Made by a program: the position numbers and the translations under genes
Shown: positions 4,299 to 18,830 of the stretch, one piece after another
Layout of the letters: every line of letters starts with the position of its first letter
Numbering within the stretch: the stretch's first letter is position 1
Notes under the pieces: model-generated
Told to the model about the DNA's origin: nothing
The model's database searches: none
The model's input: only the letters and a program-made list of their open reading frames with translations
Source: Candidatus Syntropharchaeum caldarium
GTDB taxonomy: Archaea > Halobacteriota > Syntropharchaeia > Syntropharchaeales > Syntropharchaeaceae
Reading direction: 5' to 3'
DNA: 32,000 bases
NCBI GenBank assembly: GCA_001766815.1
Contig: LYOS01000005.1
Coordinates: 68,687-100,686 of the forward strand

Positions 4299-4378
4299 CT
4301 CGTATTTTATATATACTCGATTACTTCTCAGCATGGTGACTGTATCGTTGCGGTCTGAGACCGGGGAAGGGTGAGATC

Positions 4379-4726
4379 ATGAGCCACTGGCTATGCATCC
4401 TTAACCGGGAGAACTTTGAGGTTGTCAGGGGCAAGATGATATGGGTAGGCTTTCCGAAAGCCCACACGGTATGAACTTTTACAAAGTTCATCCTCAAATG
4501 TCCAGCATTCCGCTACGCTCCAGCTGGACTTCCAGCCTTCGGCTGGGGTTCTCGCTCGAAGAGCGTAGTCCTACCGCAGGTAGGACATGGGTGTATGAGG
4601 CGTGCTTTACGCCTCATTACAAACAAGAAGAAATGGAGCGAGCATTTAGTCGGGAAGGCGATGGGGGAGATTTCTGAGCGGGATTATGAGGTGATGAGGG
4701 GGTGGGTGGAAGGGGAAAGCTTTTAA
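4379..4726 (+). pseudogene. Disrupted EVE/PUA-like (UPF0310-type) gene: N-terminal 23 codons and C-terminal ~35 codons survive in different frames
   Basis: 4379-4447 encodes MSHWLCILNRENFEVVRGKMIW, a UPF0310-like start, then stops at 4472-4474. A different frame at about 4618-4726 encodes [34 protein letters not shown], which resembles the UPF0310 C-terminus. The central ~90 codons expected from my recollection of the family are missing. Confidence 0.55.
4448..4617. other. Hairpin-dense ~170-nt insert (MITE-like element or structured RNA candidate) replacing the middle of the EVE-like gene
   Basis: Perfect stems read directly: 4471-4479/4483-4491 (9 bp); 4513-4520/4561-4568 (8 bp) enclosing 4532-4537/4541-4546 (6 bp); 4568-4575/4579-4586 (8 bp); 4595-4603/4609-4617 (9 bp). 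Confidence 0.45.
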
Positions 4727-4751
4727 AATCATTCAATTCCATTCATACCAT

Positions 4752-5027
4752 ATGGTAGGAATAAGAACTGTCGGCAAAAAAGGACAGGTTACAATACCCA
4801 AGGAAATTAGAGAGAAGTTTGGGTTGAAAGAAGGCTCAAAGGTCAGTTTTGAGGTTAAAGAGGATGAGATAGTGATTAAACCTGAGAAATCTGGGAAAGA
4901 TTTTGTTGAAGAATGGTGCTCCATTGTTAAAAAGAAGCTGGACAAACCGATCGATTTGAGAAGGCTGAAAGAAGAGTACTACGAGGAGCAGGTGGAAAAG
5001 TTTTACTATCATGTGAACTGTAAATGA
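4752..5027 (+). CDS. AbrB/SpoVT/MazE-family DNA-binding protein (antitoxin-like regulator)
   Basis: The N-terminal swapped-hairpin motif VGKKGQVTIPKEIREKFGLKEGSKVSFEV..DEIVIKP is typical of AbrB/VapB-type antitoxins. It is co-oriented with, and 12 nt upstream of, the ATPase gene. Confidence 0.75.
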   Translation: MVGIRTVGKKGQVTIPKEIREKFGLKEGSKVSFEVKEDEIVIKPEKSGKDFVEEWCSIVKKKLDKPIDLRRLKEEYYEEQVEKFYYHVNCK

Positions 5028-5039
5028 AATGAGGTTATA

Positions 5040-6044
5040 ATGAACAGCGCGGAGGCGTACAGGAAACTATTCGCAGCATTTGCAAGCGGAGCAAGAGATG
5101 AGTTTTTTAAAGTAGCTCAAGAAATAATTGAGGATGAGGAGCGAAAACATAATAATAAACTTGCTAAAGATTTGTGTCGTATTTTATACAACGGAAATAA
5201 AACTAAAAACTATTCAGAACGATATAAAAAAGCATTGCAAATTCCACGGGATGCAGAGAGGGGGCTGCCACTGGTGGAAATAAAAGAATGTAAAAAGGAC
5301 TGGTCTGAGATAGTAGTAGAAGAAAACATAGAAAATACTCTCAGAAGAATAATTTTAGAAAATCAAAAAAGGGAGGTTCTTGAAGTTAGTGGGCTGAAAC
5401 CTAAGATGAAATTACTATTCTTTGGTCCACCAGGATGTGGTAAAACTCTTGCTGCGGAGGTATTAAGTACGGTACTTAGCTGGCCGATGGCTTATGTTAA
5501 GTTTGACGGGTTAATCTCTTCTTATCTGGGCGAAACTGCATCAAACATGAGAAAAATATTTGATTTTATAGAGCGGGGGCAGTGGGTCGTCTTTTTTGAT
5601 GAGTTTGATGCCATTGGAAAGGAGAGAGATAGCCCGTTTGAACATGGAGAGATGAAGAGGGTTGTTAATAGTTTCCTTCAGATGCTGGATAATTTTAAGG
5701 GCGAATCCATTATAATTGCTGCAACAAATCATCAACACCTTTTAGATCCTGCTTTATGGAGAAGATTTGACGAACTTATTTATTTTGGCTTTCCAGATAA
5801 GAAGAGGAGGGTTGAAATTTTCAAAAAATATCTAAGAGGAATAAGAACGATAAAGGTGGATTTAGAGTATTTTGCAGAAAAAACAGATGGTATGAGTCCA
5901 GCAGACATAGAAACAATCTGTTTGAATGCAATAAAAGAGGTAATACTCTCGGATAAGAAGTCTCTAACAAAGGCCGTGCTGGATGAATATGTTGAGAAGC
6001 AAAGAGAACGAATTGAGATTAGAAATAAAGCCATGAGGGGGTGA
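5040..6044 (+). CDS. Classical AAA+ ATPase (IetA-like)
   Basis: Walker A GPPGCGKT, Walker B VVFFDEFD, sensor-1 IIAATN and an arginine-finger region PALWRRFD. Its stop overlaps the start of the downstream S8 protease gene (GTGA). Confidence 0.8.
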   Translation: MNSAEAYRKLFAAFASGARDEFFKVAQEIIEDEERKHNNKLAKDLCRILYNGNKTKNYSERYKKALQIPRDAERGLPLVEIKECKKDWSEIVVEENIENTLRRIILENQKREVLEVSGLKPKMKLLFFGPPGCGKTLAAEVLSTVLSWPMAYVKFDGLISSYLGETASNMRKIFDFIERGQWVVFFDEFDAIGKERDSPFEHGEMKRVVNSFLQMLDNFKGESIIIAATNHQHLLDPALWRRFDELIYFGFPDKKRRVEIFKKYLRGIRTIKVDLEYFAEKTDGMSPADIETICLNAIKEVILSDKKSLTKAVLDEYVEKQRERIEIRNKAMRG

Positions 6045-8464
6045 ATGGAATGGCTGAGAGATTACCTCACTTGCCCTTGCCTGTGGTAATGGAGGGTTTG
6101 CCAAGAAAGAAAAGGAAAGCATACCCAAAGCCAAGGAAAGTAAGGAGCGATGCTGAAAGAAAAACATTTGGTAAGAAAGCATTGGATGAAAGTGAAAAAA
6201 TTATTGAAGATTTTTCAAAATGGAAAAGCAAATATGGAGATAAAATTGATCCCAAGTTAATCTTTAAGATAGAGGCAAATTCACCAATCAACGAGAATGA
6301 TCTTGGTAGAATGGGGCTTAAAATTCTTGGCGTGGATTATAAAGACGCTGTTGTAGTATTTGCTGATGATGAGCATTTGACTGCGTTTAAAAGAATGATA
6401 GAAGAATACGCTAATGAAATACCGCCCGACCAAGAAAATGCAAAACACGCATTCATCCATGCCTTCGAAGATATTCGCAAAATAGCTCCTGGTGAAAAGA
6501 TAGGGGTTAGATTAAGGAAAGAACCACTAAAAGATGAAGATATCGCTATACTGGATATTGAATTGTGGCATTTGGGTAGAGAGTATCGAGAACAGATGCT
6601 CTCATGGAAAGATGGAATAGATAGAATATTAAAGGAGAATGGCGGAGAAGTTACGGATTTCTATCTAGGACGAGCATTGTTTATTATACGGGCAAAAGTT
6701 CCATCAACTTTATTATATGATATTCTTAACCTGCCCCAAGTAGCAAGGGTAGATAGACCTCCTAAGACCACTTTAGACTTGGCGAAAATTAAGGGAATTT
6801 CTCTAGATGAAATTGGTGAGATTCCATCTCCAGAGGATGATGCTCCTGGCATCCTAATTGTTGACTCTGGAATAACGAGCGGGCACCCACTTTTAAAGAG
6901 TGCAATAGGTGATGCTCAATCATATCTGGATGGGAAATCCCCGGTTGATGAGAATAGCCACGGTACTGCTGTCGCTGGTGTTGCCTTGTATGGTGATTTG
7001 CGAGAATATATTAAGGAGAAGAAATTCAATCCAGAACTTTGGATATACTCTGCTCGGGTGTGTGATGAGAATGGCGAGTACGATAAAGAAAAACTTCCCG
7101 AAACGCAGCTAGATGAGGCGATAAAGTATTTTGTTGAACATTATGAGAACATTAGAGTTGTAAACTTATCCATAGGTGATCCTGAAAAGATATATCACCC
7201 AGAAGATTATCAGTACCGATTGGCAGCGGTTATTGATGAGCTTGCGCTTGAGTACGGAGACAACAACATTCTATTTGTTGTTTCTGCTGGAAATTATGAG
7301 GACAGTAGGACGGGGGTGGAGTATCTCGATGAAGAAACTGCAAGTAGGTACCCGGCTTATTTGCTGGATGATCCGAATGCTAAGGTAATTGATCCTGCGA
7401 CTTCTGCGCTTGCTCTCACGGTTGGTTCTCTGAGTTTGGAACAGGGATCTGCTAATAGGTGGTTTGCCTCGCCTTTGGCTGGTTTTGAAGAGTTTCCATC
7501 CCCCTTCACACGGACGGGACCCGGTGTAAACGGAATGATTAAACCGGATTTAGTAGAGTTTGGTGGGGACCTAACATCTGAAAAGGGGTCTGGGATCGTA
7601 ACAGATCCTTCTATCGGAGTAATCACAACGGAAAAGAATTTCCTTACAGAGGGATTATTCAGAGTTGAGGACGGAACAAGCTTTTCAGCAGCTAAAGTAT
7701 CTCATCTGGCTGCAAAATTGTGGAGAGAGCTTCCTGATGCAACTTCTAACCTGATAAAAGCACTACTGGTTGCATCTGCAAAGATACCTGATATAAGACC
7801 CCCTCCCTTGGATAGTATCGATTTAAAAGGTTCAGCTAAAGAGGACCAATCTAAGCTGCTTAACATTTATGGTTATGGACATCCGAGTCTTGATAGAGCA
7901 TTTTCTATCCAGAACAGGGTGCTTTTGATCGATGAAAGAGAGATAAATTTGGACGATATTGTTATCTATGAGATTCCAGTTCCAGTGGAGTTTTATAGAG
8001 GCAGTGGCAGAAGAACTATTTCGATTACACTCGCTTTTGATCCTCCAACTCGAATGACGAGGAAGCAGTACCTTGGTGTTACGATGGAGTTTCATCTTTT
8101 TAGAGGGGTTGATGTTGAACAGATAAAACAGAGATACGCCAAAATGGAGACGTTTGATACCGAAGAAGAGGGTGTTCCACCATTATTACGAAGTAATGAG
8201 ATATCTTTGGTTCCAGGTGTAACGTTAGCGAAGAAGGGAACGGTTCAGAAGCGGATGTGGTTGATAGACCGTACACCAGACTATATTGACGAATCATTGA
8301 AGCTGGTGGTTATCTGTAGTGGCAAATGGATGATTGATGAAGAATACAAGCAAAGATATGCCGTTGTTGTGACGATGGAACAGCGAGATATGATTGAGTT
8401 GTATAACAAAATTAAGGAGCGGTTGAGAATACCCGAGAGAGTGAGGATACGACCGCTGGGCTGA
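6041..8464 (+). CDS. S8 (subtilisin-like) serine peptidase with ~270-aa N-terminal and ~190-aa C-terminal extensions (IetS-like)
   Basis: Catalytic triad contexts ILIVDSGI (Asp), SHGTAVAGVA (His) and DGTSFSAAKVSHLAA (Ser), plus VVSAGN. Translationally coupled to the upstream AAA+ gene. The start may be GTG 6041 or ATG 6050. Confidence 0.8.
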   Translation: MNGMAERLPHLPLPVVMEGLPRKKRKAYPKPRKVRSDAERKTFGKKALDESEKIIEDFSKWKSKYGDKIDPKLIFKIEANSPINENDLGRMGLKILGVDYKDAVVVFADDEHLTAFKRMIEEYANEIPPDQENAKHAFIHAFEDIRKIAPGEKIGVRLRKEPLKDEDIAILDIELWHLGREYREQMLSWKDGIDRILKENGGEVTDFYLGRALFIIRAKVPSTLLYDILNLPQVARVDRPPKTTLDLAKIKGISLDEIGEIPSPEDDAPGILIVDSGITSGHPLLKSAIGDAQSYLDGKSPVDENSHGTAVAGVALYGDLREYIKEKKFNPELWIYSARVCDENGEYDKEKLPETQLDEAIKYFVEHYENIRVVNLSIGDPEKIYHPEDYQYRLAAVIDELALEYGDNNILFVVSAGNYEDSRTGVEYLDEETASRYPAYLLDDPNAKVIDPATSALALTVGSLSLEQGSANRWFASPLAGFEEFPSPFTRTGPGVNGMIKPDLVEFGGDLTSEKGSGIVTDPSIGVITTEKNFLTEGLFRVEDGTSFSAAKVSHLAAKLWRELPDATSNLIKALLVASAKIPDIRPPPLDSIDLKGSAKEDQSKLLNIYGYGHPSLDRAFSIQNRVLLIDEREINLDDIVIYEIPVPVEFYRGSGRRTISITLAFDPPTRMTRKQYLGVTMEFHLFRGVDVEQIKQRYAKMETFDTEEEGVPPLLRSNEISLVPGVTLAKKGTVQKRMWLIDRTPDYIDESLKLVVICSGKWMIDEEYKQRYAVVVTMEQRDMIELYNKIKERLRIPERVRIRPLG

Positions 8465-8479
8465 TCTTTACTGTAAGGC

Positions 8480-8648
8480 GCATTTGGAGGGTATAACAGC
8501 CGATGAGGGAAGGGAGCTCAGGAAACTGAAGAATGAGAACATGAAGATGATTGAGGATGTTTACATGGCGCTTGTGGGTGATAGAGAGGTGCAGGCGTGG
8601 ATTGAGAAGATAAAGGCGCATGAGTGGGTGAGGATGGTGGAGGGGTGA
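8480..8648 (+). repeat. RM-tail repeat copy E (5'-truncated, diverged)
   Basis: Encodes ...LEGITADEGRELRKLKNENMKMIEDVYMALVGDREVQAWIEKIKAHEWVRMVEG*, colinear with the end of copy A. No start codon. It begins about 15 nt after the S8 protease stop. Confidence 0.75.
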
Positions 8649-8677
8649 TTATATTTAGATGAAAGGCAAAGATAAAA
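8649..8677 (+). promoter_or_regulatory. Conserved TATA-containing leader following tail copy E
   Basis: TTATATTTAGATGAAAGGCAAAGATAAAA is near-identical to 9633-9660, which follows tail copy F. Both sit in front of an antitoxin gene. TTATATTTA is TATA-box-like and lies roughly 25-30 nt before ATG 8680. Confidence 0.4.
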
Positions 8678-8679
8678 TT

Positions 8680-8886
8680 ATGATATCTGCTGTGAATTTG
8701 GAGAGAAAGCTACTTGCCCTGGAGAGGGAGCTTCATTCGTTACTTGATATGGTGAGGGAGGAGAGGTTAAAGGAGCTTGGAGGAGATGTGGTGGAGGCTT
8801 CTTCTGGTGCCTGGGGATATGATGTAGATAGTGCTGAGTTTGTTAGAGGGTTGAGAGGTTCTAAACGGCTGGACTGGATAGAATGA
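8680..8886 (+). CDS. Small VapB-like antitoxin (coiled-coil N-terminus, AWG..D..EFVRGLR C-terminus)
   Basis: MISAVNLERKLLALERELHSL...ASSGAWGYDVDSAEFVRGLRGSKRLDW resembles archaeal PIN-partner antitoxins. Its stop overlaps (ATGA) a PIN-like start. I prefer ATG 8680 over 8659 because 8659 lies inside the leader that is non-coding at copy F. Confidence 0.5.
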   Translation: MISAVNLERKLLALERELHSLLDMVREERLKELGGDVVEASSGAWGYDVDSAEFVRGLRGSKRLDWIE

Positions 8887-8945
8887 AGTTCTTTGTGGAC
8901 TGTCTCAAAAAGATGTGGAAAAGCTCAAAAAGCTTTTGGAGATAG
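8883..8945 (+). pseudogene. PIN-domain toxin remnant (20 codons)
   Basis: MKFFVD... is the usual PIN/VapC start and is coupled to the antitoxin stop by an ATGA overlap. The frame ends after 20 codons. Confidence 0.3.
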
Positions 8946-9011
8946 TCATCGTAGAAGAATATACGAATACATATAAAAACATTTATATATCACCTTTAAA
9001 ATACTCATCGT

Positions 9012-9269
9012 GTGAATACTTACACGATCAAGATAAAAGAAGCTGCTGAAAAGCGACTTAAAAGATATGACAAAGAGATTCAGAGGCGTTTTGCATCTAA
9101 AATCAGAAAGTTGAGTGAGAACCCTGAAGTGCATGGAAAACCCCTCAGAAAACCTCTCCATGGATACTGGGAACTGCGATTTGAACGAAGATTCAGAATC
9201 ATTTACACGATAAATCATGCTGAGAAAACAGTTACAATAGAGGCGATAAAACACAAGGATGAGTTTTAG
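9012..9269 (+). CDS. RelE/ParE-family toxin
   Basis: The layout is typical of the RelE/StbE family: ...IRKLSENPEVHGKPLRKPLHGYWELRFERRFRIIYTINHAEKTVTIEAIKHKDEF. It has a GTG start only and no cognate antitoxin upstream on the same strand. Confidence 0.7.
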   Translation: MNTYTIKIKEAAEKRLKRYDKEIQRRFASKIRKLSENPEVHGKPLRKPLHGYWELRFERRFRIIYTINHAEKTVTIEAIKHKDEF

Positions 9270-9463
9270 ATACCAAGCTCCCTTGCAACGGCTTCAAAAT
9301 CTCGTATTTTTGCTTCCCTTCTCTTTCCCTCACTGATCTGCTCCATGAGATCTTCATCGGATAACGTCTCGATCGTTCTCAACATCGATTCATACTCGTC
9401 CAGAGAGATCGTTATCCATTCGGTCTGATGAGTTTTATTATTCGTGTTGGAAGTTTCCATCAT
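9266..9463 (-). CDS. RelB/Phd-like antitoxin
   Basis: ITISLDEYESMLRTIETLSDEDLMEQISEGKRREAKIRDFEAVARELGI matches the archaeal RelB-type antitoxin pattern. Its stop codon overlaps the RelE stop on the other strand (TTAG). Confidence 0.6.
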   Translation of the reverse strand: MMETSNTNNKTHQTEWITISLDEYESMLRTIETLSDEDLMEQISEGKRREAKIRDFEAVARELGI

Positions 9464-9596
9464 ATCTAATAGTAGTGGGTTTGTATATTTAAGGATGATG
9501 TTGTTGTATAAAGTTTTTGGAGGAGAATAGCACCATGAATCCAGTATTATTCACCCACATCTTTACTGTTGGGCATACAGTGTGTGTCTAAAACGG

Positions 9597-9632
9597 ATTG
9601 AGAGGATAAAAGGGCGTGGGGGGTAGGGATGA
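9597..9632 (+). repeat. RM-tail repeat copy F (only the last ~12 codons, degenerate)
   Basis: ATTGAGAGGATAAAAGGGCGTGGGGGGTAGGGATGA parallels ATTGAGAAGATAAAGGCGCATGAGTGGGTGAGGATGGTGGAGGGGTGA of copy E. The same conserved leader follows both. Confidence 0.5.
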
Positions 9633-9660
9633 TTATATTTAGATAAAAAGCAAAGATAAA
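9633..9660 (+). promoter_or_regulatory. Conserved TATA-containing leader following tail copy F
   Basis: TTATATTTAGATAAAAAGCAAAGATAAA differs from 8649-8676 at two positions by eye. It precedes the SD GTGAGGTGA and the GTG start at 9674. Confidence 0.4.
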
Positions 9661-9673
9661 GTGAGGTGAATAA

Positions 9674-9898
9674 GTGACCCTGAAAGTCCTGGTTGATATC
9701 GTGAATGACATAACAAAATTCATTGAGAGGCTTGAGAGGAGGAAAGAGGAGCTTGAGGAGTTAAGAGATGAGCTTCTGGTCTACAGTGATGAAGAGTTTA
9801 TTGAGAGTATAGAAAAGGGATTAAAAGACTTTGAGGAGGGTAAGTTCAAGAGATGTGAGAATCTGGATGAGATAAAAGCTGTTTTTGAAGATCTATGA
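9674..9898 (+). CDS. RelB-like antitoxin
   Basis: 74 aa with a coiled-coil N-terminus and a C-terminal DEEFIESIEKGLKDFEEGKFKRCENLDEIKAVF, typical of archaeal RelB. It overlaps the downstream toxin start by 4 nt. Confidence 0.6.
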   Translation: MTLKVLVDIVNDITKFIERLERRKEELEELRDELLVYSDEEFIESIEKGLKDFEEGKFKRCENLDEIKAVFEDL

Positions 9899-10155
9899 TC
9901 TATAAGGCAGATTTCTCTGATGAGTTTCTTAAAATAGCAAAGAAACTTAAGAAAAAAGATTATACAACTTTTGTAAGGTTACAATCAAAGATTGAGGAAA
10001 TTCTGAGCAATCCAGAGCATTATAAACCCTTGAAAGGTGGGATGAAGGGACTGAGAAGGACACATCCTGGATCTTTCGTGATAATATTCAAAATTGAGAA
10101 GGATTATGTCAGGTTCGTCACATTCAAGCACCATGATGAAGCATATCGTGAATAG
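9895..10155 (+). CDS. RelE/ParE-family toxin
   Basis: 86 aa with ...ILSNPEHYKPLKGGMKGLRRTHPGSFVIIFKIEKDYVRFVTFKHHDEAY, matching the RelE family layout. Coupled to the upstream antitoxin. Confidence 0.7.
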   Translation: MIYKADFSDEFLKIAKKLKKKDYTTFVRLQSKIEEILSNPEHYKPLKGGMKGLRRTHPGSFVIIFKIEKDYVRFVTFKHHDEAYRE

Positions 10156-10184
10156 TAGCGTAGCATATCAAGGTTTGAATAACG

Positions 10185-10592
10185 ATGAATAGATCACCAT
10201 TCATGCAGAAACTGTATGAAATCCTTGCAGACCGCCCCCTCTTCCTCAACGCTACGGAGGAACGCAGAAACAAGCTCAAAGATGTAATAGAATTTTTCGA
10301 CCGCCAGATTGCAGATAACCTCGTTTACGAACTCTACTTCAAAGAAAAATTCGCAGAGGTGGTCTCAAAACATTTAAAAGCCGTAAATTATGATAGGTGG
10401 AGTGAGCTTTACTGGAAGCGGGAGCTTGAAGGAGATCTAAAACCAGAAGAAGAGAAAGAATTAAAAGATTTAGAGAATGAGAACTTAAAAACAATAATTG
10501 AAGTTGTCAAGGCAATCAAATCAGATAGGGAGATCATGGAGTTGATCGAGAAGATAAAAGGGCATGAGTGGGTGAGGTTGGTGGAGGGATGA
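10185..10592 (+). pseudogene. Type IIG-like restriction-modification enzyme, C-terminal remnant (tail copy A, longest and intact to its stop)
   Basis: ...FFDRQIADNLVYELYFKEKFAE...IEKIKGHEWVRLVEG* resembles the conserved C-terminal end of Eco57I/TaqI-like type IIG enzymes (canonical ...LVYELYGLTEEEIKIVEG). Only 135 codons are present and there are no methylase or nuclease domains. Confidence 0.65.
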
Positions 10593-11470
10593 AAGAGAAT
10601 TACCTTGATTTTGGTGGCCTAAAGGATGATAAGAAGCTTGACTGGTTTATCTTTTATTTCATAATACCTCTGTTCTTGATCATCGTTTACATCATGGTCT
10701 ATCTTCATCCAGAGCTTGAGAGAGTTCTCATCCTCCAGACGTCCAATCCCACCTGGATCAGCATATACCTTTCCAACTTTGTCCATACAGATTTATGGCA
10801 TCACTTAGGAGGGAATTTACTTAATTATTTCATTCTAATTTACTTGATACTCTTCTTCAGGACCGATAAAAAGAAATTCTACATCAATATGGCTCTATTT
10901 TTTACTGTACTACCAGTACTCTGTTCTTTATCAACAATTTATCTTGCATCAGCGCCCCCACCATCTTTTGGGGTTTTATGGCAATTTTTGGGTTTTTCTG
11001 GCATTGTTTCTGGTTTGGCTGGTTATCTCCTATACTCTGTTTACCGGTATATCAGAGAAAAATGGGAGATTTTAAATATCCATTTCATTTTTTCAATTCT
11101 CGCATTTAATCTATTGATCATCACTTTTACATATAAATGGTTCTGGATGTCTGTTTTTATCTTTTTATTCTGCTTGGTAGCTTTATATCTGGCTAAAAAT
11201 GGTCTAACGATGACAATCTCTAAAATTATCGACAAGTGGAATAAGATAAAACAAAAGAATGCAAAAGTTAAGATTTACAAGCTTATGATCTTTCTTTTTA
11301 CGGTTTATTTTCTTTTTGGATCAACTGTGGGGTTATTTCCTGTAAATGCAAAGGGAATAAACATTCTTGCCCACTATGCTGGTTATTGCTTCGGAGCGCT
11401 TGTTCCATTGATATTTGTGGATGGTGGCATGTTAGTGCTGAAAAAGCTGTTGGATTCGGATAAAAGGTAG
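10589..11470 (+). CDS. Rhomboid-family intramembrane serine protease (candidate)
   Basis: Polytopic membrane protein with WHHLGGNLLNY (H-x3-N), GFSGIVSGLAGY (GxSG catalytic Ser) and AHYAGYCFGAL (catalytic His) in successive hydrophobic segments. ATG 10589 lies within the last codons of tail copy A, whose GGTGGAGGG serves as the SD. Confidence 0.6.
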   Translation: MKENYLDFGGLKDDKKLDWFIFYFIIPLFLIIVYIMVYLHPELERVLILQTSNPTWISIYLSNFVHTDLWHHLGGNLLNYFILIYLILFFRTDKKKFYINMALFFTVLPVLCSLSTIYLASAPPPSFGVLWQFLGFSGIVSGLAGYLLYSVYRYIREKWEILNIHFIFSILAFNLLIITFTYKWFWMSVFIFLFCLVALYLAKNGLTMTISKIIDKWNKIKQKNAKVKIYKLMIFLFTVYFLFGSTVGLFPVNAKGINILAHYAGYCFGALVPLIFVDGGMLVLKKLLDSDKR

Positions 11471-11550
11471 AACCATAAATTTTAGGATTCTGTAATAAGT
11501 TTACCAAAAAGATAAAACCCACCCATGAATAATGGTAGTAGAGGGTAAAA

Positions 11551-11877
11551 ATGAGAACAACCACTGAGATTAAGGAGCTTGTACTGAAGATAAAGAAATT
11601 CCTTCTGGACCTTTATGGGACAGGGATAAAGCAGGTCATACTCTATGGCTCCTATGCGAGGGGGGATGCGGACGAGGATTCAGATATCGATCTCTTAGTT
11701 GTAGTCGGAGAGGAGATTAGCCCTTCGGAAGTAGAGGAGAGCCTCAACGATCTTTTGTTTGAGATCCTCATTGAGAGGGGGGAGCTGGTATCAGTTATGG
11801 CGATTCCAGAAGGCACTTTCAGGTCTTATAATTCTCCTCTTTTCCTGAATGTGAGGAGGGAGGGGGTATCGGTATGA
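11551..11877 (+). CDS. Minimal nucleotidyltransferase (MNT) antitoxin
   Basis: GSYARGDADEDSDIDLLVV is the pol-beta NTase GS...DxD motif. 4-nt overlap with the downstream HEPN gene. Confidence 0.8.
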   Translation: MRTTTEIKELVLKIKKFLLDLYGTGIKQVILYGSYARGDADEDSDIDLLVVVGEEISPSEVEESLNDLLFEILIERGELVSVMAIPEGTFRSYNSPLFLNVRREGVSV

Positions 11878-12257
11878 AAGAGATAGAAGATCTGATAAAG
11901 AAAGCACAGAGGTTTTTGAGAACTGCTGAAATTACCCTGGATGATTGTGATTACGACTCATGCGTCTCAAGATGTTATTATACGATGTTTTTCATGGCTG
12001 AAGCGATGCTTTTGAGCAAAGGTATCAGTGCATCCTCTCACAAAGGTGTAATAAGTTTATTTGGAGAGCATTTTATCAAGACAAACATATTAAAGGAGGA
12101 GCTGGGTAAGGCATTGAGAAGAGCATACGATTTAAGACAGAAAGGGGATTACGCCACGGGTTTTACCGTCAGTGATAGGGAAGCTAAGAAGAGCCTGGAG
12201 ACAGCTAAAAGATTTGTAGCAGAAGCAGAAAAGTATCTTAAGAGCCAAACGGAGTAA
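11874..12257 (+). CDS. HEPN-domain toxin
   Basis: 127-aa helical protein coupled to an MNT. HEPN-type layout (...SCVSRCYYTMFFMAEAMLL...SHKGVISLF...AYDLRQKGDY). Confidence 0.75.
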   Translation: MKEIEDLIKKAQRFLRTAEITLDDCDYDSCVSRCYYTMFFMAEAMLLSKGISASSHKGVISLFGEHFIKTNILKEELGKALRRAYDLRQKGDYATGFTVSDREAKKSLETAKRFVAEAEKYLKSQTE

Positions 12258-12512
12258 ATGATCTACGAACTCTACTTCAAAGAAAAATTCGCAGAGGCGG
12301 TCTCAAATCACCTTAAGCCGGTAGATTATGATCGCTGGAGTGAGCTTTACTGGAAGCGGGAGCTTGAATGGAATTTAAAACCAGAAGAAGAGAAAGAATT
12401 AGAAGATTTAGAGAATGAGAACTTAAAAACAATAATTGAAGTTGTCAAGGCAATCAAAACAGATAGGGAGATCATGGAGTTGATTGAGAGGATTAAAGGG
12501 CATGTGGGTTAA
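12258..12512 (+). repeat. RM-tail repeat copy B
   Basis: Starts at ATG ATC TAC GAA CTC TAC (IYELY) immediately after the HEPN stop. Roughly nine in ten positions match copy A by eye. A 2-bp loss near the end (GGGCATGTGGGTTAA versus GGGCATGAGTGGGTGAGG) truncates it to ...IKGHVG*. Confidence 0.85.
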
Positions 12513-12531
12513 GGTAAGAGGAGAGTGAAAT

Positions 12532-12876
12532 ATGGTATTGGTAAAAGTGGAGAGGGTAGATGAGAATTTGATTGAGGAGATTGTTAAGAGGATACTCAGC
12601 GTGGTTAATCCTGTGAAGATTATTCTTTTCGGATCTTATGTCTACGGTAAGCCTCGAAAAGACAGTGATTTGGACATACTTGTGATTGTTGATGAAGATA
12701 AGAAACCTAGATACAAAAGAGTGGTTCCTGTGAATCTTGCTCTATCAGATATAATCTATCCGATTGATGTGTTTATATACACCAAGAAAGAGGTGGAGGA
12801 GTGGACAGGTGTACCACAGTCTTTTATCACTACCATTATAAAGAAGGGAAAAGTGATCTATGAAAAAGAAGCTTGA
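12532..12876 (+). CDS. Minimal nucleotidyltransferase (MNT) antitoxin
   Basis: GSYVYGKPRKDSDLDILVIV NTase motif. Overlaps the downstream HEPN gene by 17 nt. Confidence 0.8.
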   Translation: MVLVKVERVDENLIEEIVKRILSVVNPVKIILFGSYVYGKPRKDSDLDILVIVDEDKKPRYKRVVPVNLALSDIIYPIDVFIYTKKEVEEWTGVPQSFITTIIKKGKVIYEKEA

Positions 12877-13270
12877 CTGGATAAAAGAATGGATTAATAA
12901 AGCTGACAAGGACCTCAAGGTAGCTGAAAGGTTCTTAAATGATGAAAATATGGCAGATGTGGTGTGTTTCCATGCACAGCAGGCATCTGAAAAATGCCTG
13001 AAGGCGTATCTAAACTGGCTTGAAATAGAATACCCCAAAACTCACCTTCTTGAAAAACTTATAGAGCTCGCATCCTTAACAGACAAAGATATTTCGAAAT
13101 TGAAAGAAGATGCTGCGAAACTTTCCCCTTTTGCAGTGGAAACAAGATATCCAGAATTTGAGCTTCCATTATCAGAAGATGCTCTGGAGGCCTTAGAAAT
13201 ATCATATAAAATAAGAAACTATGTCCTTTCTAAATTGCCAAGGACAAAAAAGGAAAAAAATGATGTATGA
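12860..13270 (+). CDS. HEPN-domain toxin
   Basis: FHAQQASEKCLKAYL and ETRYP motifs typical of HEPN partners of MNT. Its stop codon overlaps the first codons of tail copy C. Confidence 0.8.
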   Translation: MKKKLDWIKEWINKADKDLKVAERFLNDENMADVVCFHAQQASEKCLKAYLNWLEIEYPKTHLLEKLIELASLTDKDISKLKEDAAKLSPFAVETRYPEFELPLSEDALEALEISYKIRNYVLSKLPRTKKEKNDV

Positions 13271-13536
13271 ACTCTACTTCAAAGAAAAATTCGCAGAGGC
13301 GGTCTCAAATCACCTTAAGCCGGTAGATTACGATCGCTGGAGTAAGCTTTACTGGAAGGGGTAGCTTGAAGGAGATCTAAAACCAGAAGAAGAGAAAGAT
13401 TTAGAAGATTTAGAGAATGAGAACTTAAAAACAATAATTGAAGTTGTCAAGGCAATCAAAGCAGATAGGGAGATCATGGGGTTGATCGAGAAGATAAAAG
13501 GGCATGAGTGGGTGAGAGTGATTGAAAGAGGTTAAA
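13266..13536 (+). repeat. RM-tail repeat copy C (in-frame stop)
   Basis: Starts TAT GAA CTC TAC (YELY). TGGAAGGGGTAGCTTGAA replaces TGGAAGCGGGAGCTTGAA, giving an internal TAG. It ends ...IKGHEWVRVIERG*. Confidence 0.85.
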
Positions 13537-15084
13537 AGCATTTATAAAATTATTGAAAATCTGTTATATCTGTCTTCTTTAGCACAATTCAATACCGAGA
13601 GGAAACAACTGATTCTTAAGTTCTATGATTTCTCTATGAGGAATAAGATTTTATTTGAAAAATGTATAGGTATGAGAGACCTAGAGGATTTCTGTTTGTC
13701 GTATAGGGAAAAAGACCTAATAGAAGAGTGGTTGTTGACATTGCCTCTAGATGTTCATGTAAGTTGGAATCTTGAATACACCACAGAAAGATATGCTCAC
13801 CTTGACAACCTATTTTTAAAAGAATATGGTTTTCACATTGGTTCATTAACCGTAATGGAGATGGTCCTAATGGGTATTATCTATTCAAAAGTAGATTTAG
13901 AAGGGATTCTCAACGAAGTTTATAAGTTCAAAAATAAGGAAGAATATGGAAATTTATGTTTTTTAGCTGAACCAAATAGAATATTTCCTAAAAAATGGTC
14001 ATCCTGCATAATACTTTCAGAAAACGAAATTCTTGAGAGCTACATACAGCATCAAACTAATTTTGATAGATTTTTCAAAGTTATCTCTTCGATAAATTGG
14101 AGAGTTGATTCAGAAGAGGAACTTATACAACTCAGGCTAAAAGAAGCAATAAGTATTTTAAAATGGCTCAGCACGGATTTACAATCTTTGGAGTTGAAAT
14201 ACAATCAGAAATTCTATTTCTTTCTCAAACCACTTTTAAAAGTGCAGGATGAAGACTCCAAGGTTTATTACATCGTACCTTTTCCGTTTATTCTTGGATC
14301 AACCACGAATATCAGAATAGAAAATTCTATTCAATTATCTGAGAAACTTAAAAAAGCTGATGAAAAAAAGAAGGGAAAAATAGTAGAGATTTTGGTAAAT
14401 AAAATCTTTCCACAATTTTTTAACAAAAATATCATTAAAAATTTCAGATACAAGATAGATGAAAAAACTTATGAAAGCGATATAATTCTACTCTTAGATA
14501 AGTCATTGTGGGTAGTAGAAGTTAAATCTCACCCAGTATTTAGGAAGATTCCTGGTAATGTGGATAAAGTCGTTCCTGCTTTTGTCAGCAAAGTCAAGGA
14601 AGGATTGAATCAAGGAAAAAGAACATTAGACTTCTTGTCAAAAAATAAAGACTTACTTTTTCACCTCACAGACAAAAATTTCGAAAATCTCGTTAAAGGA
14701 GTAATAGTTGTGTTAGATGGGTTTATCCCCACACTGCTAACTCTAAACAGAGAATGTGATAGCATTGCTGGAACTGACAAAATTTATCAGAAAATCCCAA
14801 ATTCAGTAAGAGTTTATGTAGTAACTCTTCTGGATTTATACATTTTATCTATGCAGTCAGAGAAAGATAGTTTTGAAGATTTTCTATTGTGGAGAACTGA
14901 TTATTTAAGCAATTTTCCTATAATTTCTTATGATGAAGAAGAATATTGGTCATTTTATAACGACCACTATACAAAGCATGAAGAAATCAAAAATAAGTTT
15001 CCAAAATTGGTAGAAAATGGTATAAAAATAATATATCTCAGTGCGAGGTTTAACAAAAAAGATTACTTAGAGAAAATAGTGTAA
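13522..15084 (+). CDS. Large uncharacterised protein with a C-terminal-half PD-(D/E)xK / NERD-like nuclease motif
   Basis: ...GKIVEILVNKIF...YESDIILLLDKSLWVVEVKSHP gives an E...D...ExK arrangement like NERD or restriction-endonuclease-fold proteins. It is very A/T-rich and K/N/I/F/Y-rich. The start is uncertain (TTG 13522 or ATG 13636). Confidence 0.5.
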   Translation: MKEVKSIYKIIENLLYLSSLAQFNTERKQLILKFYDFSMRNKILFEKCIGMRDLEDFCLSYREKDLIEEWLLTLPLDVHVSWNLEYTTERYAHLDNLFLKEYGFHIGSLTVMEMVLMGIIYSKVDLEGILNEVYKFKNKEEYGNLCFLAEPNRIFPKKWSSCIILSENEILESYIQHQTNFDRFFKVISSINWRVDSEEELIQLRLKEAISILKWLSTDLQSLELKYNQKFYFFLKPLLKVQDEDSKVYYIVPFPFILGSTTNIRIENSIQLSEKLKKADEKKKGKIVEILVNKIFPQFFNKNIIKNFRYKIDEKTYESDIILLLDKSLWVVEVKSHPVFRKIPGNVDKVVPAFVSKVKEGLNQGKRTLDFLSKNKDLLFHLTDKNFENLVKGVIVVLDGFIPTLLTLNRECDSIAGTDKIYQKIPNSVRVYVVTLLDLYILSMQSEKDSFEDFLLWRTDYLSNFPIISYDEEEYWSFYNDHYTKHEEIKNKFPKLVENGIKIIYLSARFNKKDYLEKIV

Positions 15085-15125
15085 GCCATCAGAAAAGATA
15101 ATAAATATCTGGAAGCAACAGGTAC

Positions 15126-15314
15126 AACCGCTGGAGTAAGCTTTACTGGAAGCGGGAGCTTGAAGGGGATTTGACTCCTGATAGGGAAAGAGAGCTTGAG
15201 AAACTGGAAAGGGAGAATATGAAGACGATTGAGGAGGTTTATGAAGCAATCAAAGCAGATGGGGAAATCATGGAGTTGATCGAAAGGATTAAAGGGCATG
15301 AGTGGGTTAGATAA
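15126..15314 (+). repeat. RM-tail repeat copy D (5'-truncated, diverged)
   Basis: Encodes ...RWSKLYWKRELEGDLTPDRERELEKLERENMKTIEEVYEAIKADGEIMELIERIKGHEWVR*, colinear with copies A-C but lacking the YELYFKEKFAE start. Confidence 0.8.
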
Positions 15315-15425: not shown

Positions 15426-15713
15426 ATGTATGATCAGATTAGGGAAATGAAAAGGGAGATTATTGATGTTTTGAGAAAGCATAATGTCAAACGGGCATCG
15501 CTTTTTGGCTCGTTTGCAAGAGGGGAGGCGGGTCCAGGGAGTGATATTGACATTCTTGTGGAGTTTGAAGGGAGAAAAAGCCTGCTGGATCTTGCAGGCT
15601 TGAAAATAGAACTTGAAGAGTTATTGAAAAGGAAGGTTGATGTCCTGACATACAATTCTCTGCATCCTCTTCTAAAGGATAGAATCCTCAGTGAACAGGA
15701 AGTAATACTATAA
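15426..15713 (+). CDS. Minimal nucleotidyltransferase (MntA-type antitoxin)
   Basis: GSFARGEAGPGSDIDILVEF NTase motif. 95 aa, typical of the MntA partner of HepT/DUF86. Confidence 0.8.
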   Translation: MYDQIREMKREIIDVLRKHNVKRASLFGSFARGEAGPGSDIDILVEFEGRKSLLDLAGLKIELEELLKRKVDVLTYNSLHPLLKDRILSEQEVIL

Positions 15714-15914: not shown

Positions 15915-16397
15915 TCATCCCGCTGCCACCAACCCAGCAATTACCATCACAATTCCACCTGTCATCAGCAGATAACCTCCTTTTAAAATTTCAACCACTG
16001 CAAGGATCGTGATTTCACCACCTGATGAGAGGGATGGAGCAAAGGATGGATAGAGGTAGAGCAGGATGTACACGCCGAGTACATACATCACAAGCCCTAT
16101 ACCCGTCCTAAGGAACTTTCTTCTGAGGATACCAATCAGAGCAAGGGCAAGTATGAAGAAGAAGGCGTACTTTGCATATTCTCCTTTCAAATCAAGTGAG
16201 TCAAGTAGTGTGTCAATCTCTGGGTTCCCACTCATCGCCTCGATCGAGTTTGCACCAACAACAAGTTTGACCACAATGGGTGGTGTATCAGGCACCTCAA
16301 GCGTTATGTTCAGGCTGTACCATGGATAGAAGAAACTCGTGGCTGCAATCATGAGACCAATCAGTGCGATGATAAAACTCAAATCTTTCTTATTCAT
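15915..16397 (-). CDS. Polytopic membrane protein, unknown function
   Basis: 160 aa with about 4-5 hydrophobic segments. Co-oriented with, and 6 nt downstream of, flaG. No recognisable motifs. Confidence 0.45.
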   Translation of the reverse strand: MNKKDLSFIIALIGLMIAATSFFYPWYSLNITLEVPDTPPIVVKLVVGANSIEAMSGNPEIDTLLDSLDLKGEYAKYAFFFILALALIGILRRKFLRTGIGLVMYVLGVYILLYLYPSFAPSLSSGGEITILAVVEILKGGYLLMTGGIVMVIAGLVAAG

Positions 16398-16403
16398 TCT
16401 CGA

Positions 16404-16853
16404 TCATATCCGGAAGTCCATTGTATCAAGGATACCTGTTTCTGTGACAATTCGCAGGCTATGATCCCCGCTTGAGATCTCTGAACTTGCAATATTTACC
16501 TCAAGTACTTCTCCCTCGCGCCAGGTTGTCTCACCTGTATCAAGCACCTTCAGAATCAGTGAGCTATCGGTTATGTACCGACCATCGAGGAAGACATCGA
16601 TCTGATTTATATCAAGGTTTGTTTTGCCCGTATTCTTAACATAAAACACCCTGTAACTTCCGTTTGTTGGTATCATTGCCGAATCACTTATTATCGTGAT
16701 ATCAGTCTTTAACTGATTCGATAGCACGGTTCCACTGCCCCTCGTTGCATCAGCGACTGACTGGACATTAACACTTATCGCCCCCACAACAAGCGTTGCC
16801 AGTATCATCGATGCTATAAAGAATATTATATGTGATGCTCCAGCATCAGACAT
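16404..16853 (-). CDS. flaG: Archaellum protein FlaG/ArlG
   Basis: N-terminal ASHIIFFIASMILATLVVGAI hydrophobic helix followed by SNQLKTDITIISD, typical of FlaG. Its position after flaF fits. Confidence 0.7.
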   Translation of the reverse strand: MSDAGASHIIFFIASMILATLVVGAISVNVQSVADATRGSGTVLSNQLKTDITIISDSAMIPTNGSYRVFYVKNTGKTNLDINQIDVFLDGRYITDSSLILKVLDTGETTWREGEVLEVNIASSEISSGDHSLRIVTETGILDTMDFRI

Positions 16854-16870
16854 GGTTCATCCCCTCAAGT

Positions 16871-17308
16871 TTAATAGTAATCTGATACGCCATTTGCTGC
16901 TATCACCTTCACACGTGCTGGATTTGAGCTAATTCCTGATATATTGATCTCTAAACATTCATCGGGTGCCCATACAGAGGTTGCTGTACCATCGATCGTG
17001 AGTGCTGTGATGGAATCTGTCTTCAGGTTGCCATCAAGGATTACATCAATTTTGCTCGCGTTTATTACGGTGCTTCCTGTATTATTGACATCAATCAGCA
17101 GAAAATTTCCTTCAGCATTATAACTTGTGTCTGTTATCTCAAAATCCGTTTGAATCTTGTTCAACATCCTTTCCTGCTGAACTTCTTTTGCATCATTGAC
17201 CAGGTTCGATCTATAGCTGTAAGATGATACAAGCATACTTGCAAGAACAATGAACGCCACGAGAAATATCGCAAATGTCATTGAGACGCTAAATCCCATA
17301 CTCTCCAC
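16871..17308 (-). CDS. flaF: Archaellum protein FlaF/ArlF
   Basis: MGFSVSMTFAIFLVAFIVLASML N-terminus and a beta-rich C-terminus (NNTGSTVINASKIDVILDG), typical of FlaF. The likely start is the MGFS methionine at 17299. Confidence 0.7.
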   Translation of the reverse strand: MESMGFSVSMTFAIFLVAFIVLASMLVSSYSYRSNLVNDAKEVQQERMLNKIQTDFEITDTSYNAEGNFLLIDVNNTGSTVINASKIDVILDGNLKTDSITALTIDGTATSVWAPDECLEINISGISSNPARVKVIAANGVSDYY

Positions 17309-18830
17309 CCATCAGATTTTTGAGCTTCATCACTTCCTGCTCTACAAGGTTGACTGTGATCATATCGATCTCGTTTCCATGAATCATTTCAATAAAGAGG
17401 AGTGACTTCTTGTGATCATCTGGTGAGAGTCTCCACTCGGGTTTATCTTTGTAGTAGTCCATCCCTGCTGCATACTCCATCGCCTGATTCCTTAACTCCT
17501 TGTCGATCCATCCGATATGGACGTAGTAGTTCAGCGCCTCAAGAAGGTTGTTTCGTCCAACCCGCTCCAGCAGAAACTCAACCCATCTTATGAGAACAAG
17601 TGACTGCACAGGGTTAATACCATGGCTCGATTCTACAGCCCCCCCTCCTTGATGACAACCGCCTCGGGAATTCACCGAAAGCTCACGATTTTTAATCCCA
17701 TCGATCTGCTCAACAGATCCGCATCCAGCGTTCGTTTCCTCTTCGATGGCTTTCTGGGCCTTGAGCTCTTTAAGTTCGTTCACAATCTCTTTGAATGATT
17801 CAAACTCGGCTTTAATCTCCTCTTCTGCCATACCGATCTCTGTCAAACGTTGAAAAACATTGTTAAACTTGAGATCAATCTCTTCGTTGTGCTCCCCTTC
17901 ACTGATGCGCGCTTCCAGCATTTCTATCTTCTGCGAGAGTTTTGTAACCATTTCACCGAGTGCCGCAAGATCATCCCCTGTGTCACCCTGCATTGTGTTG
18001 AGCCGTGCCTCAATATTCTTGACCACCGCGTCAATTCCCTCAATCTGCGCAATTCTTGCCTCAATCTGGTCAAACCGCTCGGTTATAGCAGAACTCAATG
18101 CACTCTCGCCCACAAAAGGATTCACCTGATCGGATATGATTTCATATAAACTTAAAAATTGTATTGTCGTCTCATCAAGCTTATTTATTTTATCCATCAT
18201 CTCATCGTTTTCTTTCTTAATTATACTCAGTGAAACGTCGATTTTACTCTGTTTAAGTTCCAGTTCTTCAAGCCTGTTGAGAAGTGCAGTGTTGTCATCT
18301 TTTTCACCCCCTTTCTTTGGTGTGGGTGCCTCAAAGTCGTCTTCTTCGTCAAAGTCTTCCTCTTCTTCAAAGTCATCTTCCTCGTCGAAGTCATCTTCCT
18401 CCTCGAAGTCCTCCTCTTCTTCAAAGTCATCTTCCTCGTCGAAGTCGTCTTCCTCGTCAAAGTCATCGTCACTCATGACATCACCTCCATCATCCTCATC
18501 CCACTCCCCCTTTTCTTCAATCTCTTCCTCTACCTCGTCAAAATCAAAGAGATCATCCTCATCGTCTATTTTTTTCTCCACCTTTTTCTGGCCTGAACCT
18601 GGTTTAACTTTTTTTGATATTTCCTTCCTGCCAACAGTATCACCTGCGAGCATCTTGAACTTGTTTTTGAGTGAGTTTTTCCGCATTTTTTTAACATCCA
18701 ACAGATTTTTTTTCGGTCCGAGATCGAGCTTTGCAAATGGATTTGGTACTTTTCTGTTGAAGTTCAAACTTCCTTTGAATGACTTTAACACTTTACCCAT
18801 ATCCATATAAAAGTAATGAATTGGGAACAA
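17289..18830 (-). CDS. flaD: Archaellum protein FlaD/E (ArlD/E) with FlaC-like coiled coil and an expanded acidic repeat
   Basis: The C-terminal domain ...LIRWVEFLLERVGRNNLLEALNYYVHIGWIDKEL...LSPDDHKKSLLFIEMIHG matches the FlaD/E conserved domain. The central SLYEIISDQVNPFV is a FlaC_arch-type motif. The true start is probably the MDMGKV/MGKV methionines. Confidence 0.75.
   Translation of the reverse strand: MFPIHYFYMDMGKVLKSFKGSLNFNRKVPNPFAKLDLGPKKNLLDVKKMRKNSLKNKFKMLAGDTVGRKEISKKVKPGSGQKKVEKKIDDEDDLFDFDEVEEEIEEKGEWDEDDGGDVMSDDDFDEEDDFDEEDDFEEEEDFEEEDDFDEEDDFEEEEDFDEEDDFEAPTPKKGGEKDDNTALLNRLEELELKQSKIDVSLSIIKKENDEMMDKINKLDETTIQFLSLYEIISDQVNPFVGESALSSAITERFDQIEARIAQIEGIDAVVKNIEARLNTMQGDTGDDLAALGEMVTKLSQKIEMLEARISEGEHNEEIDLKFNNVFQRLTEIGMAEEEIKAEFESFKEIVNELKELKAQKAIEEETNAGCGSVEQIDGIKNRELSVNSRGGCHQGGGAVESSHGINPVQSLVLIRWVEFLLERVGRNNLLEALNYYVHIGWIDKELRNQAMEYAAGMDYYKDKPEWRLSPDDHKKSLLFIEMIHGNEIDMITVNLVEQEVMKLKNLMGGEYGI
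18331..18470 (-). repeat. In-frame 18-nt tandem repeat encoding (D/E)(D/E)DF(D/E)E units in flaD/E
   Basis: About eight consecutive units of GAAGTCATCTTCCTCGTC-like sequence on the plus strand. The translation is DDFDEEDDFDEEDDFEEEEDFEEEDDFDEEDDFEEEEDFDEEDDFE. Confidence 0.8.

Follow-up and report, generated by a model that had tools for sequence, protein, structure and literature searches.

An IetAS-type ATPase–protease module behind an orphan vapB gene in Candidatus Syntropharchaeum caldarium

Results

In a 32,000-nucleotide stretch of the Candidatus Syntropharchaeum caldarium contig LYOS01000005.1 (hereafter the window, to which positions refer unless a locus is named), three co-directional open reading frames (ORFs) on the forward strand encode a 91-aa AbrB-type protein, a 334-aa AAA+ ATPase (IetA) and, when read from position 6041 to 8464, an 807-aa S8 subtilase (IetS) (Table 1). 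A first-pass annotation, made by a model from the letters of the sequence, had described them as an AbrB-like gene in front of an ATPase–protease pair resembling the IetAS anti-phage system. We found the three ORFs at the positions it gave and the AbrB-type stop codon separated from the ATG of ietA by 12 nt, as it had said; all the ATPase and subtilase motifs that it quoted are likewise present in the translations. In IetA these are GPPGCGKT (aa 129–136, nt 5424–5447), VVFFDEFD (aa 183–190, nt 5586–5609), IIAATN (aa 225–230) and ALWRRFD (aa 238–244), together with a SYLGE pore loop at aa 161–165. In IetS, numbered from the ATG at 6050, they are IVDSG (270–274), HGTAVAG (304–310) and GTSFSAA (542–548), to which SAGN (412–415) can be added.

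The same annotation had the ATPase and protease genes overlap by 4 nt, which holds only if ietS starts at the GTG at 6041. The ATG at 6050 is the likelier start, giving a protein of 804 aa and a 5-nt gap after ietA, because homologues (that of locus L002 among them) align from residue 4 of the 807-aa ORF only and because a ribosome-binding run, the Shine-Dalgarno-like, purine-rich GAGGGGGTG, lies 7–15 nt 5′ of this codon. The deposited GenBank protease (P0001, 791 aa) begins at Met17 of the 807-aa ORF (window 6041–6089); since homologues conserve sequence from residue 4 on (HLxLP motif), this start is probably too late, by 13 codons. The coupling of ietA and ietS is tight with either ietS start, and in most related loci the junction between the two genes measures about −23 to +33 nt.

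Table 1. Features of the vapB–ietAS segment, in window positions.
Feature	Position	Strand	Basis or remark
vapB promoter region (putative role)	4706..4751	+	homology to the region 5′ of intact vapBC
orphan vapB, AbrB/SpoVT-type type II antitoxin gene	4752..5027	+	profiles and homologues
native ietAS leader	4995..5039	+	GAGGT ribosome-binding site at 5031–5035
ietA, classical-clade AAA+ ATPase, predicted antitoxin/regulator partner	5040..6044	+	profile matches
ietS, S8 subtilase, predicted effector/toxin	6050..8464	+	profile matches; alternative GTG start at 6041
3′-end remnant of a type IIG methyltransferase gene	8484..8648	+	right boundary of the vapB–ietAS segment; one copy of the repeat that separates the island cassettes

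Both proteins matched PADLOC models over nearly their full length, in a search with hidden Markov models (HMMs) that the first-pass annotation had itself proposed. IetA aligned with PDLC02196 (E = 3.6e-97, 324 bits; residues 8–324 on profile positions 8–325 of 374) and with three more PADLOC IetA models (1e-39 to 3e-81), and carries the Pfam domains AAA and AAA_lid_3. IetS aligned with PDLC02198 (E = 2.9e-132, 440 bits; residues 30–803 on profile positions 22–787 of 795) and has Pfam Peptidase_S8 at 271–613. Standard defence-annotation tools would call the archaeal pair as IetAS. Conservation at the active sites agrees with these matches: Walker A, Walker B, the pore loop and the RRF motif are kept across 95 IetA sequences from related loci, and D272, H304, N415 and S544 of IetS are invariant in an alignment of 56 homologues, so that the subtilase triad described in the first-pass annotation is complete and accompanied by the oxyanion asparagine. 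The SYLGE loop of IetA is of the aromatic-hydrophobic-Gly type found in substrate-threading unfoldases. Compared with three relatives, the ratio of nonsynonymous to synonymous substitution (dN/dS) was 0.05–0.08 for ietA and 0.09–0.11 for ietS; these values are rough, with synonymous sites near saturation, and all lie far below 1. Both genes are under purifying selection.

The pairing of the two genes is near-universal among relatives. We gathered 125 IetS loci from genomes, metagenomes and IMG/VR contigs, with scans contributing 3 relatives from genome contigs, 80 metagenomic loci and 38 viral loci. Of the 117 loci that have an IetS ORF, 102 have IetA immediately before it in the same orientation, and nearly all the exceptions were contig-end cuts or frameshift breaks. 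Similarity at the DNA level between the window and its closest relatives extends from 5034/5040 to 8419–8448, with nothing beyond. The IetS proteins nearest to ours (67–77% identity) come from ANME-1/Methanophagales, Methanoperedens, Methanogaster and one entry under a Nitrospiraceae name, followed at about 40% by cyanobacterial and other bacterial relatives. The pairs of the Ti plasmid pTiO54_95 (L134) and of an E. coli plasmid (L135) matched the same PADLOC models, more weakly. Positions 5040–8464 thus hold a genuine, complete and selectively maintained IetAS module, an ordinary new archaeal member of a known family.

Two observations concern individual relatives. The entry labelled Nitrospiraceae bacterium (P0016), whose IetS is 70% identical to the archaeal clade, sits on a 3.6-kb contig and reflects either a recent transfer between archaea and bacteria or a binning error. 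In L008 (3598–6341), the closest metagenomic relative outside named metagenome-assembled genomes (MAGs), the copy is decaying: ietA breaks off after about 107 residues and a frameshift divides ietS. Its neighbour is a GmrSD type IV restriction gene. IetAS modules are therefore lost as well as gained in these archaea.

A housekeeping protease acting with a chaperone or unfoldase, that is, a proteasome-type ATPase or a secreted subtilase with its maturation factor, would account for some of the same features. IetA belongs to the classical AAA+ clade and is related to Cdc48 and PAN, its closest solved structures in Protein Data Bank (PDB) sequence searches are the D2 domains of p97/Cdc48 (225 bits), and the propeptide–catalytic–β-sandwich layout of IetS, described below, is that of secreted subtilases such as Tk-SP. 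However, the scores of IetA with the IetA and IteA models (324 and 251 bits) lie far above those with CDC48 (135 bits, cut-off 803) and PAN (124 bits, cut-off 500), both of which fall below their cut-offs. Neither IetA nor IetS contains a hydrophobic run of more than 7 residues, so that both lack a signal peptide and a membrane segment, and for this reason IetS is taken to be cytoplasmic. The G+C content of the genes in the ietA/ietS region (0.38–0.42) is atypical of the genome, as judged against cdhE and polD (0.49–0.50), the neighbourhood differs between genomes, and the distribution is patchy over distant phyla. Together these points effectively refute a housekeeping role. The first-pass annotation had named such a role, or a lack of defence genes around homologous pairs, as findings that would speak against its proposal; the profiles point away from the former and the gene neighbourhoods reported below away from the latter.

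The PDB sequence searches returned no solved IetA or IetS. An 803-aa match, 8jmw, was considered as a solved IetS and rejected: it is Bacillus Vpr, related through the S8 domain only.

We then turned to the regions of IetS outside its catalytic domain, which the first-pass annotation had called large and uncharacterised at both ends. For the N-terminal part this does not hold, as an identical public protein (listed under Candidatus Syntrophoarchaeum caldarius) has precomputed Pfam assignments to PF27160 (Y4kK_N) and PF27210 (Y4kK_2nd) in addition to Peptidase_S8. A full-length AlphaFold2 (AF2) model of IetS, with a predicted local distance difference test score (pLDDT) of 85.1 and a predicted template modelling (TM) score of 0.87, comprises a strand and a long helix of about 30 residues (aa 1–65), two β-α-β-β-α-β domains (70–143 and 165–235), the S8 catalytic domain (about 255–615) and a C-terminal β-sandwich (about 620–780). 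Its best fold match in the PDB is ProN-Tk-SP of Thermococcus kodakarensis (3afg; E = 1e-25, 654 aligned columns), and KP-43, PCSK9 and pro-subtilisin E are further top matches; the top matches are unprocessed pro-forms made of propeptide, catalytic domain and β-jelly-roll. IetS has propeptide, catalytic domain and β-sandwich in the same order as ProN-Tk-SP, but the two are only 16% identical in sequence, and IetS differs in its long helix, its second ferredoxin-like domain, its lack of a secretion signal and its AAA+ partner.

A fold search with the N-terminal 260 residues alone gave nothing at E ≤ 0.001, with weak ACT/ferredoxin-like and prodomain matches only; the isolated model matched subtilase prodomains locally with probability 0.99 and TM ≤ 0.69 (target-normalised). 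Residues 1–20, which homologues conserve as HLxLP...LPRR, reach a pLDDT of 84–86 in the full-length model but less than 50 in a model of just the N-terminal 260 residues. Because they are modelled confidently in the full-length context only, they probably pack on the catalytic or C-terminal part. The predicted structure thus suggests a zymogen built like a pro-subtilase, in which a propeptide-like ferredoxin-fold domain precedes the catalytic domain of IetS. When the N-terminal module was searched against 1.84 billion representatives, 343 cluster representatives matched. In nearly all the matches listed the similarity starts within the first ~60 residues; the full-length ones are about 765–870 aa long and hence IetS-sized, shorter ones resemble contig-end fragments, and there is no sign among the matches listed that the module is reused with other effectors.

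The gene in front of ietAS belongs to a different family of systems. Its product matched Pfam MazE_antitoxin (1.7e-18) and TIGR01439 AbrB (1.8e-18), and its homologues are archaeal proteins of 84–89 aa. It is 92% identical over the full length (98% in the best local alignment) to the VapB of an intact vapBC pair (P0125) and 89% (93%) to P0128. An overlapping PIN gene follows the vapB homologue (98%, 93% and 65% identity) in L126, L127, L128 and three of four Archaeoglobus places, and judging by sequence and gene order these homologues are VapB antitoxins. In the window the adjacent PIN gene is absent, and a tblastn search of the window with a PIN protein found no remnant of one, so the first-pass description of an AbrB/VapB-like gene without a toxin partner stands.

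Its suggestion that AbrB, IetA and IetS form a three-gene unit, on the other hand, is rejected on the results of the survey. No AbrB/MazE domain occurs among the 71 upstream neighbours of IetA, a phmmer search with VapB returned nothing in the ORFs of the 125 IetS loci, an HMM built from 70 VapB homologues returned nothing there at E ≤ 1, and the closest relatives (L002, L004, L005 and L008) are without an AbrB gene. The gene is an orphan vapB and no component of IetAS. What the first-pass annotation had called a recycled antitoxin is indeed an antitoxin without its toxin, and is better worded as a vapB that was orphaned, with vapC gone and ietAS in its place.

The promoter of the orphan appears to have been retained as well. 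Over positions 4706–4751 the window shares 91% identity with the sequence that precedes intact vapBC in L126 and L127, the homology beginning at 4706, and promoter and gene together (4706–5007) are 95.8% identical to L126 at the DNA level. A TATA-like CTTTTAAAA at 4720–4728 lies about 28 nt before the vapB ATG, and TACCATATGGTA, a perfect 12-nt palindrome conserved in L126 and L128, spans the start codon. Reading these as promoter and putative VapB operator follows archaeal promoter geometry and the usual behaviour of AbrB-type antitoxins. VapB may still bind at the retained palindrome, and the vapB promoter, with vapB spaced 12 nt from ietA, may contribute to ietAS transcription here. A scan for sigma-70 promoters and intrinsic terminators, which does not apply to archaea, found no more sites than in shuffled sequence.

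These features bear on the question of whether VapB has been co-opted as a regulator of ietAS, such that recombination created a functional three-gene operon whose expression is tied to the level of a labile antitoxin. The shared strand, the 12-nt spacing with no terminator-like site between vapB and ietA, the promoter and palindrome matching those of intact vapBC loci, and a vapB ORF intact save for its last 8 residues are what one would expect of such an operon. However, the absence of an AbrB/MazE gene from the 125 other IetAS loci indicates that the family needs none, and the 95.8% identity to vapC-bearing copies makes the event look recent, so that an intact ORF is no proof of selection. 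In addition, the ietAS leader common with L008 may hold a promoter of its own, and many type II antitoxins are poor repressors without their toxin. We regard co-option as a tentative and somewhat unlikely reading, and keep to that of an orphan vapB left in front of ietAS.

How the orphan arose can be read from the junctions. On the left, vapB-type homology stops at 5007–5013, at the start of vapC, and ietAS-type homology begins at 4995 relative to L008 and at 5034–5040 relative to L002, L004 and L005, which places the recombination junction at about 5004–5013. Compared with vapBC loci, the window has a 4-nt deletion that includes the vapC ATG, and keeps about 8 nt of vapC; it is because of this deletion that the last 8 residues of VapB differ from those of its homologues. 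After this stretch of vapC comes a 45-nt leader common to the window and the ietAS locus L008, and the junction has microhomology (GAAAA/GTTTTAC) with the vapC start of L126. On the right, positions 8593–8648, 129 nt after the ietS stop, match the final 56 nt of the type IIG methyltransferase (MTase) gene of L133 at 93% identity; this remnant belongs to repeat families D3–D5 and aligns with other repeat copies. Downstream of vapBC, L126, L128 and L133 have an HKD-Snf2 helicase (PADLOC C3a139, 7e-153) and then a type IIG restriction-methylase. The simplest history would be that ietAS replaced vapC and nearly all of such a helicase/type IIG system, leaving vapB orphaned. Since synteny could be followed through the two remnants and no further, a single replacement event is what we infer from them.

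An assembly chimera of the MAG could in principle have brought vapB and ietA together artificially, given that near-identical vapB copies occur in other samples and that the island is rich in repeats. The microhomology at the junction, however, amounts to about 6–7 nt only, too little to mislead an assembler, and both flanks of the insert are remnants of genes that share one locus in relatives, namely the start of vapC (left) and the end of the type IIG MTase gene (right). Because these are the remnants that a real replacement would leave, we favour replacement, and consider an artefactual adjacency very improbable.

In L126 (1250–5792) and L133 (738–8901), the HKD(PLD)-Snf2 fusion helicase (C3a139) lies downstream of the retained vapBC, and after it come a 325-aa protein and a methylase of 1088 aa and Eco57I/MmeI/TaqI_C type. 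Together these genes make a candidate type IIG restriction system, assisted by a helicase, in archaea resembling Syntropharchaeales.

The first-pass annotation had placed the module in a defence and toxin–antitoxin (TA) island of a methanogen-type archaeon, and the surroundings bear this out. G+C content drops from about 0.49 to 0.31–0.43 over roughly 4.7–16 kb, between cdhC/D/E genes on one side and archaellum genes (15915–18830, minus strand) on the other. Beyond ietS the island continues with two RelE/ParE pairs, two MNT-HEPN pairs, a solo MNT gene and a NERD-like protein gene. Among relatives, ietAS stands beside a complete type I restriction-modification (RM) system in L004, beside a type I R-subunit fragment in L002, beside the GmrSD enzyme in L008 and upstream of Fic and Lon_C genes in L005. 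No single gene recurs as a neighbour across the 71 upstream and 82 downstream genes of the surveyed loci; the types seen repeatedly are restriction subunits, SNF2/ResIII helicases, SAVED, Mrr, JetD, Fic, integrases, resolvases and TnsD, so that RM and mobile-element genes are often found next to the pair.

Seven direct repeat copies (window 4682–15311) separate the TA and defence cassettes of the island, and two of them bound vapB–ietAS. The other cassettes hold a 75-aa ORF with ParE, an antitoxin with RelE, a membrane protein with MNT-HEPN, a further MNT-HEPN and the NERD-like protein. The repeat has the core GATTGAGARGATAAARGGGCATGAGTGGGTGAGG..TGGTGGAGGGxTGA, its longer copies measure 190–260 nt at 88–94% identity, and it is homologous to the last ~80 codons of the type IIG MTase gene of L133, where a second copy follows a DUF553 gene. 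Short ORFs consisting of this tail only are common in islands of Syntropharchaeales, ANME-1 and Methanoperedenaceae. The low-GC region (~4680–15310) might be an integron-like array without an integrase, the 3′ end of a type IIG MTase gene having served as the site at which each cassette, vapB–ietAS included, was captured, but we consider this quite unlikely. Capture would then proceed by recombination at the conserved tail repeat encoding ...IEKIKGHEWVRLVEG*, a step that is just as speculative. No integrase lies within the repeat array, and the repeat is not integron-attC-like, because six of the seven folds have z-scores of −0.3 to −1.3 and one of −2.8.

Further features of the island and its edges are recorded here. 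A 186-nt element at 4455–4640, between the cdh operon and vapB, forms five or six stable hairpins (minimum free energy −76.8 kcal/mol, z = −5.6; none of 200 shuffled sequences was as stable). A small ORF beginning at 4370 (MSHWLCILNRENFEVVRGK...) appears to be interrupted by it. Rfam gave no match to the element even at E ≤ 1, and it could be an element resembling a miniature inverted-repeat transposable element (MITE) or an undescribed small RNA. Two cassette genes belong to no clear family: no PADLOC model matched either the 520-aa protein encoded at 13522–15084, which has a weak NERD match only (4.8e-4), or the 300-aa multi-pass membrane protein encoded at 10568–11470, which has a sub-threshold rhomboid match. 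A third MNT-type nucleotidyltransferase gene (15426–15713) follows the last tail repeat, with no HEPN partner detected adjacent to it, and may be another orphan antitoxin at the right edge of the island.

Discussion

The locus as a whole is best explained as an IetAS module that works by a bacterial-like mechanism and that arrived by a swap leaving vapB orphaned, an explanation to which we assign a probability of about 0.8. Several observations weigh against it. IteA and IteS are the NCBIfam models that fit the two proteins best, but the scores with these equivalog models fall short of their curated cut-offs, IetA reaching 250.9 bits with IteA (2.1e-74; cut-off 510) and IetS 128.4 bits with IteS (cut-off 900), the latter over residues 90–582 only. 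Because of these scores we place the pair, on sequence grounds, in the IetAS family and in a subfamily other than the IteA/IteS equivalogs (NF042959, NF042956); for the same reason its function is extrapolated across about 23–35% identity. In addition, the loci compared at the junctions share no flank homology with the window beyond vapB and the 56-nt tail, the contig comes from a MAG and the junction is known from its assembly alone, and the prodomain matches of the isolated IetS N-terminus reach Foldseek E values of 0.03–0.17 only.

Bacterial relatives provide the basis for a functional interpretation. IetAS was described as an anti-phage system by Gao et al. 2020 (as cited in PMC13069673; homologues from E. 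coli and B. cereus m1293 have been tested), and the archaeal pair resembles it in having two tightly coupled genes, an ATPase gene upstream of that of an ~800-aa S8 protease with intact catalytic residues, and in having restriction and TA genes around it. What sets it apart from the tested systems are its archaeal host, its Y4kK-type N-terminal domains, its placement in another subfamily known from sequence and the accidental vapB in front. In the IetA/IetS TA pair of pTiC58 (Yamamoto et al. 2009, as cited in PMC8562856) and in Mycoplasma, toxicity resides in the S8 protein, and the AAA+ protein serves as the antitoxin (PMC8562856; PMC13069673). Protease activity is required for IetAS defence and ietA mutants could not be cloned, the mechanism beyond these points being stated to be unknown (PMC13069673), and ietAS of B. 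cereus acts by abortive infection triggered by YosG of SPbeta (bioRxiv 10.1101/2022.08.27.505566).

Individual pairs resemble ours to different degrees. The pTiO54_95 pair has the same gene order and the same best models for both proteins (PDLC02196/PDLC02198), with IetA 35% identical over the full length and IetS 23% over the catalytic and C-terminal domains, whereas the N-terminal 240 residues of IetS are not aligned by BLAST, and a plasmid-borne pair stands against one on an archaeal chromosome. With PDLC02198 the window IetS scores 440 bits and the Ti-plasmid IetS 90. TA132/133 of Mycoplasma mycoides (PMC8562856) also has an ATPase antitoxin upstream of an S8 toxin (~757 aa), and is chromosomal, with flanking direct repeats that resemble recombination scars; unlike our pair it is bacterial, and the likeness rests on its description. 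In ietHAS (Liu-DS4; PMC13069673), an SNF2 helicase joins IetAS, so that a third upstream gene affecting toxicity is possible, and SNF2/ResIII helicases make up 3–4 of the 71 upstream neighbours of IetA in our survey. Here, by contrast, the extra gene encodes a 91-aa AbrB-type antitoxin that recurs with IetAS nowhere else among the surveyed loci. That gene and its promoter, at 96% DNA identity to L126, are those of a VapBC type II system, except that the ATG and body of the PIN toxin gene are gone and ietAS stands instead.

By analogy with these systems, an antiviral or TA role of the archaeal pair is likely. IetS would be a toxic endopeptidase kept harmless by IetA, as in bacterial IetAS and AAA/S8 pairs, until it is released by a viral protein or by something else that disturbs IetA; the freed protease would cleave cell proteins, stop growth and thereby abort the infection. 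The predicted structure adds that the N-terminal region of IetS may hold the enzyme as a zymogen, with the conserved first 20 residues docking on the enzyme body. An IetA hexamer with its intact SYLGE pore loop would probably act on this N-terminal regulatory part and maintain or reset the zymogen state in an ATP-dependent manner, a control that the viral trigger would break. What carries the zymogen idea is resemblance in fold, and the steps built on it are conditional. As to its origin, ietAS would have arrived by horizontal transfer into a variable defence slot, and the left and right remnants of what the slot held before would be vapB with its promoter/operator and the final 56 nt of the methylase gene, respectively.

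The pair could also be mainly an addiction module that stabilises the genomic island by post-segregational killing, without being antiviral. IetAS was first described as a TA pair stabilising pTiC58, the Mycoplasma AAA/S8 pair behaves as a TA system, relatives occur in 520 plasmid records (339 of them conjugative), and the island is full of classical TA pairs. However, phage protection by abortive infection is known from bacterial homologues, relatives have a restriction system in this slot, and the closest relatives of the module adjoin RM and GmrSD genes and are not plasmid-borne. The two roles are moreover not mutually exclusive, and we deem a function mainly in addiction unlikely.

None of these findings alters existing knowledge of the IetAS family. 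They extend it to archaea that oxidise alkanes or metabolise methane, where it forms a distinct and well-conserved clade (67–77% identity), which supplies proteins from another lineage for studying the mechanism of IetAS, and the predicted pro-subtilase-like build of IetS offers a testable idea of what the ATPase controls. If the doubtful array reading were true, capture at the tail repeat would be a new way in which archaea assemble defence islands, with hybrid operons such as vapB–ietAS as a by-product. The locus also illustrates cleanly how one defence system takes over another's slot, with an orphan antitoxin and its promoter still standing in front, and it cautions annotators against assigning each small neighbouring regulator to a system.

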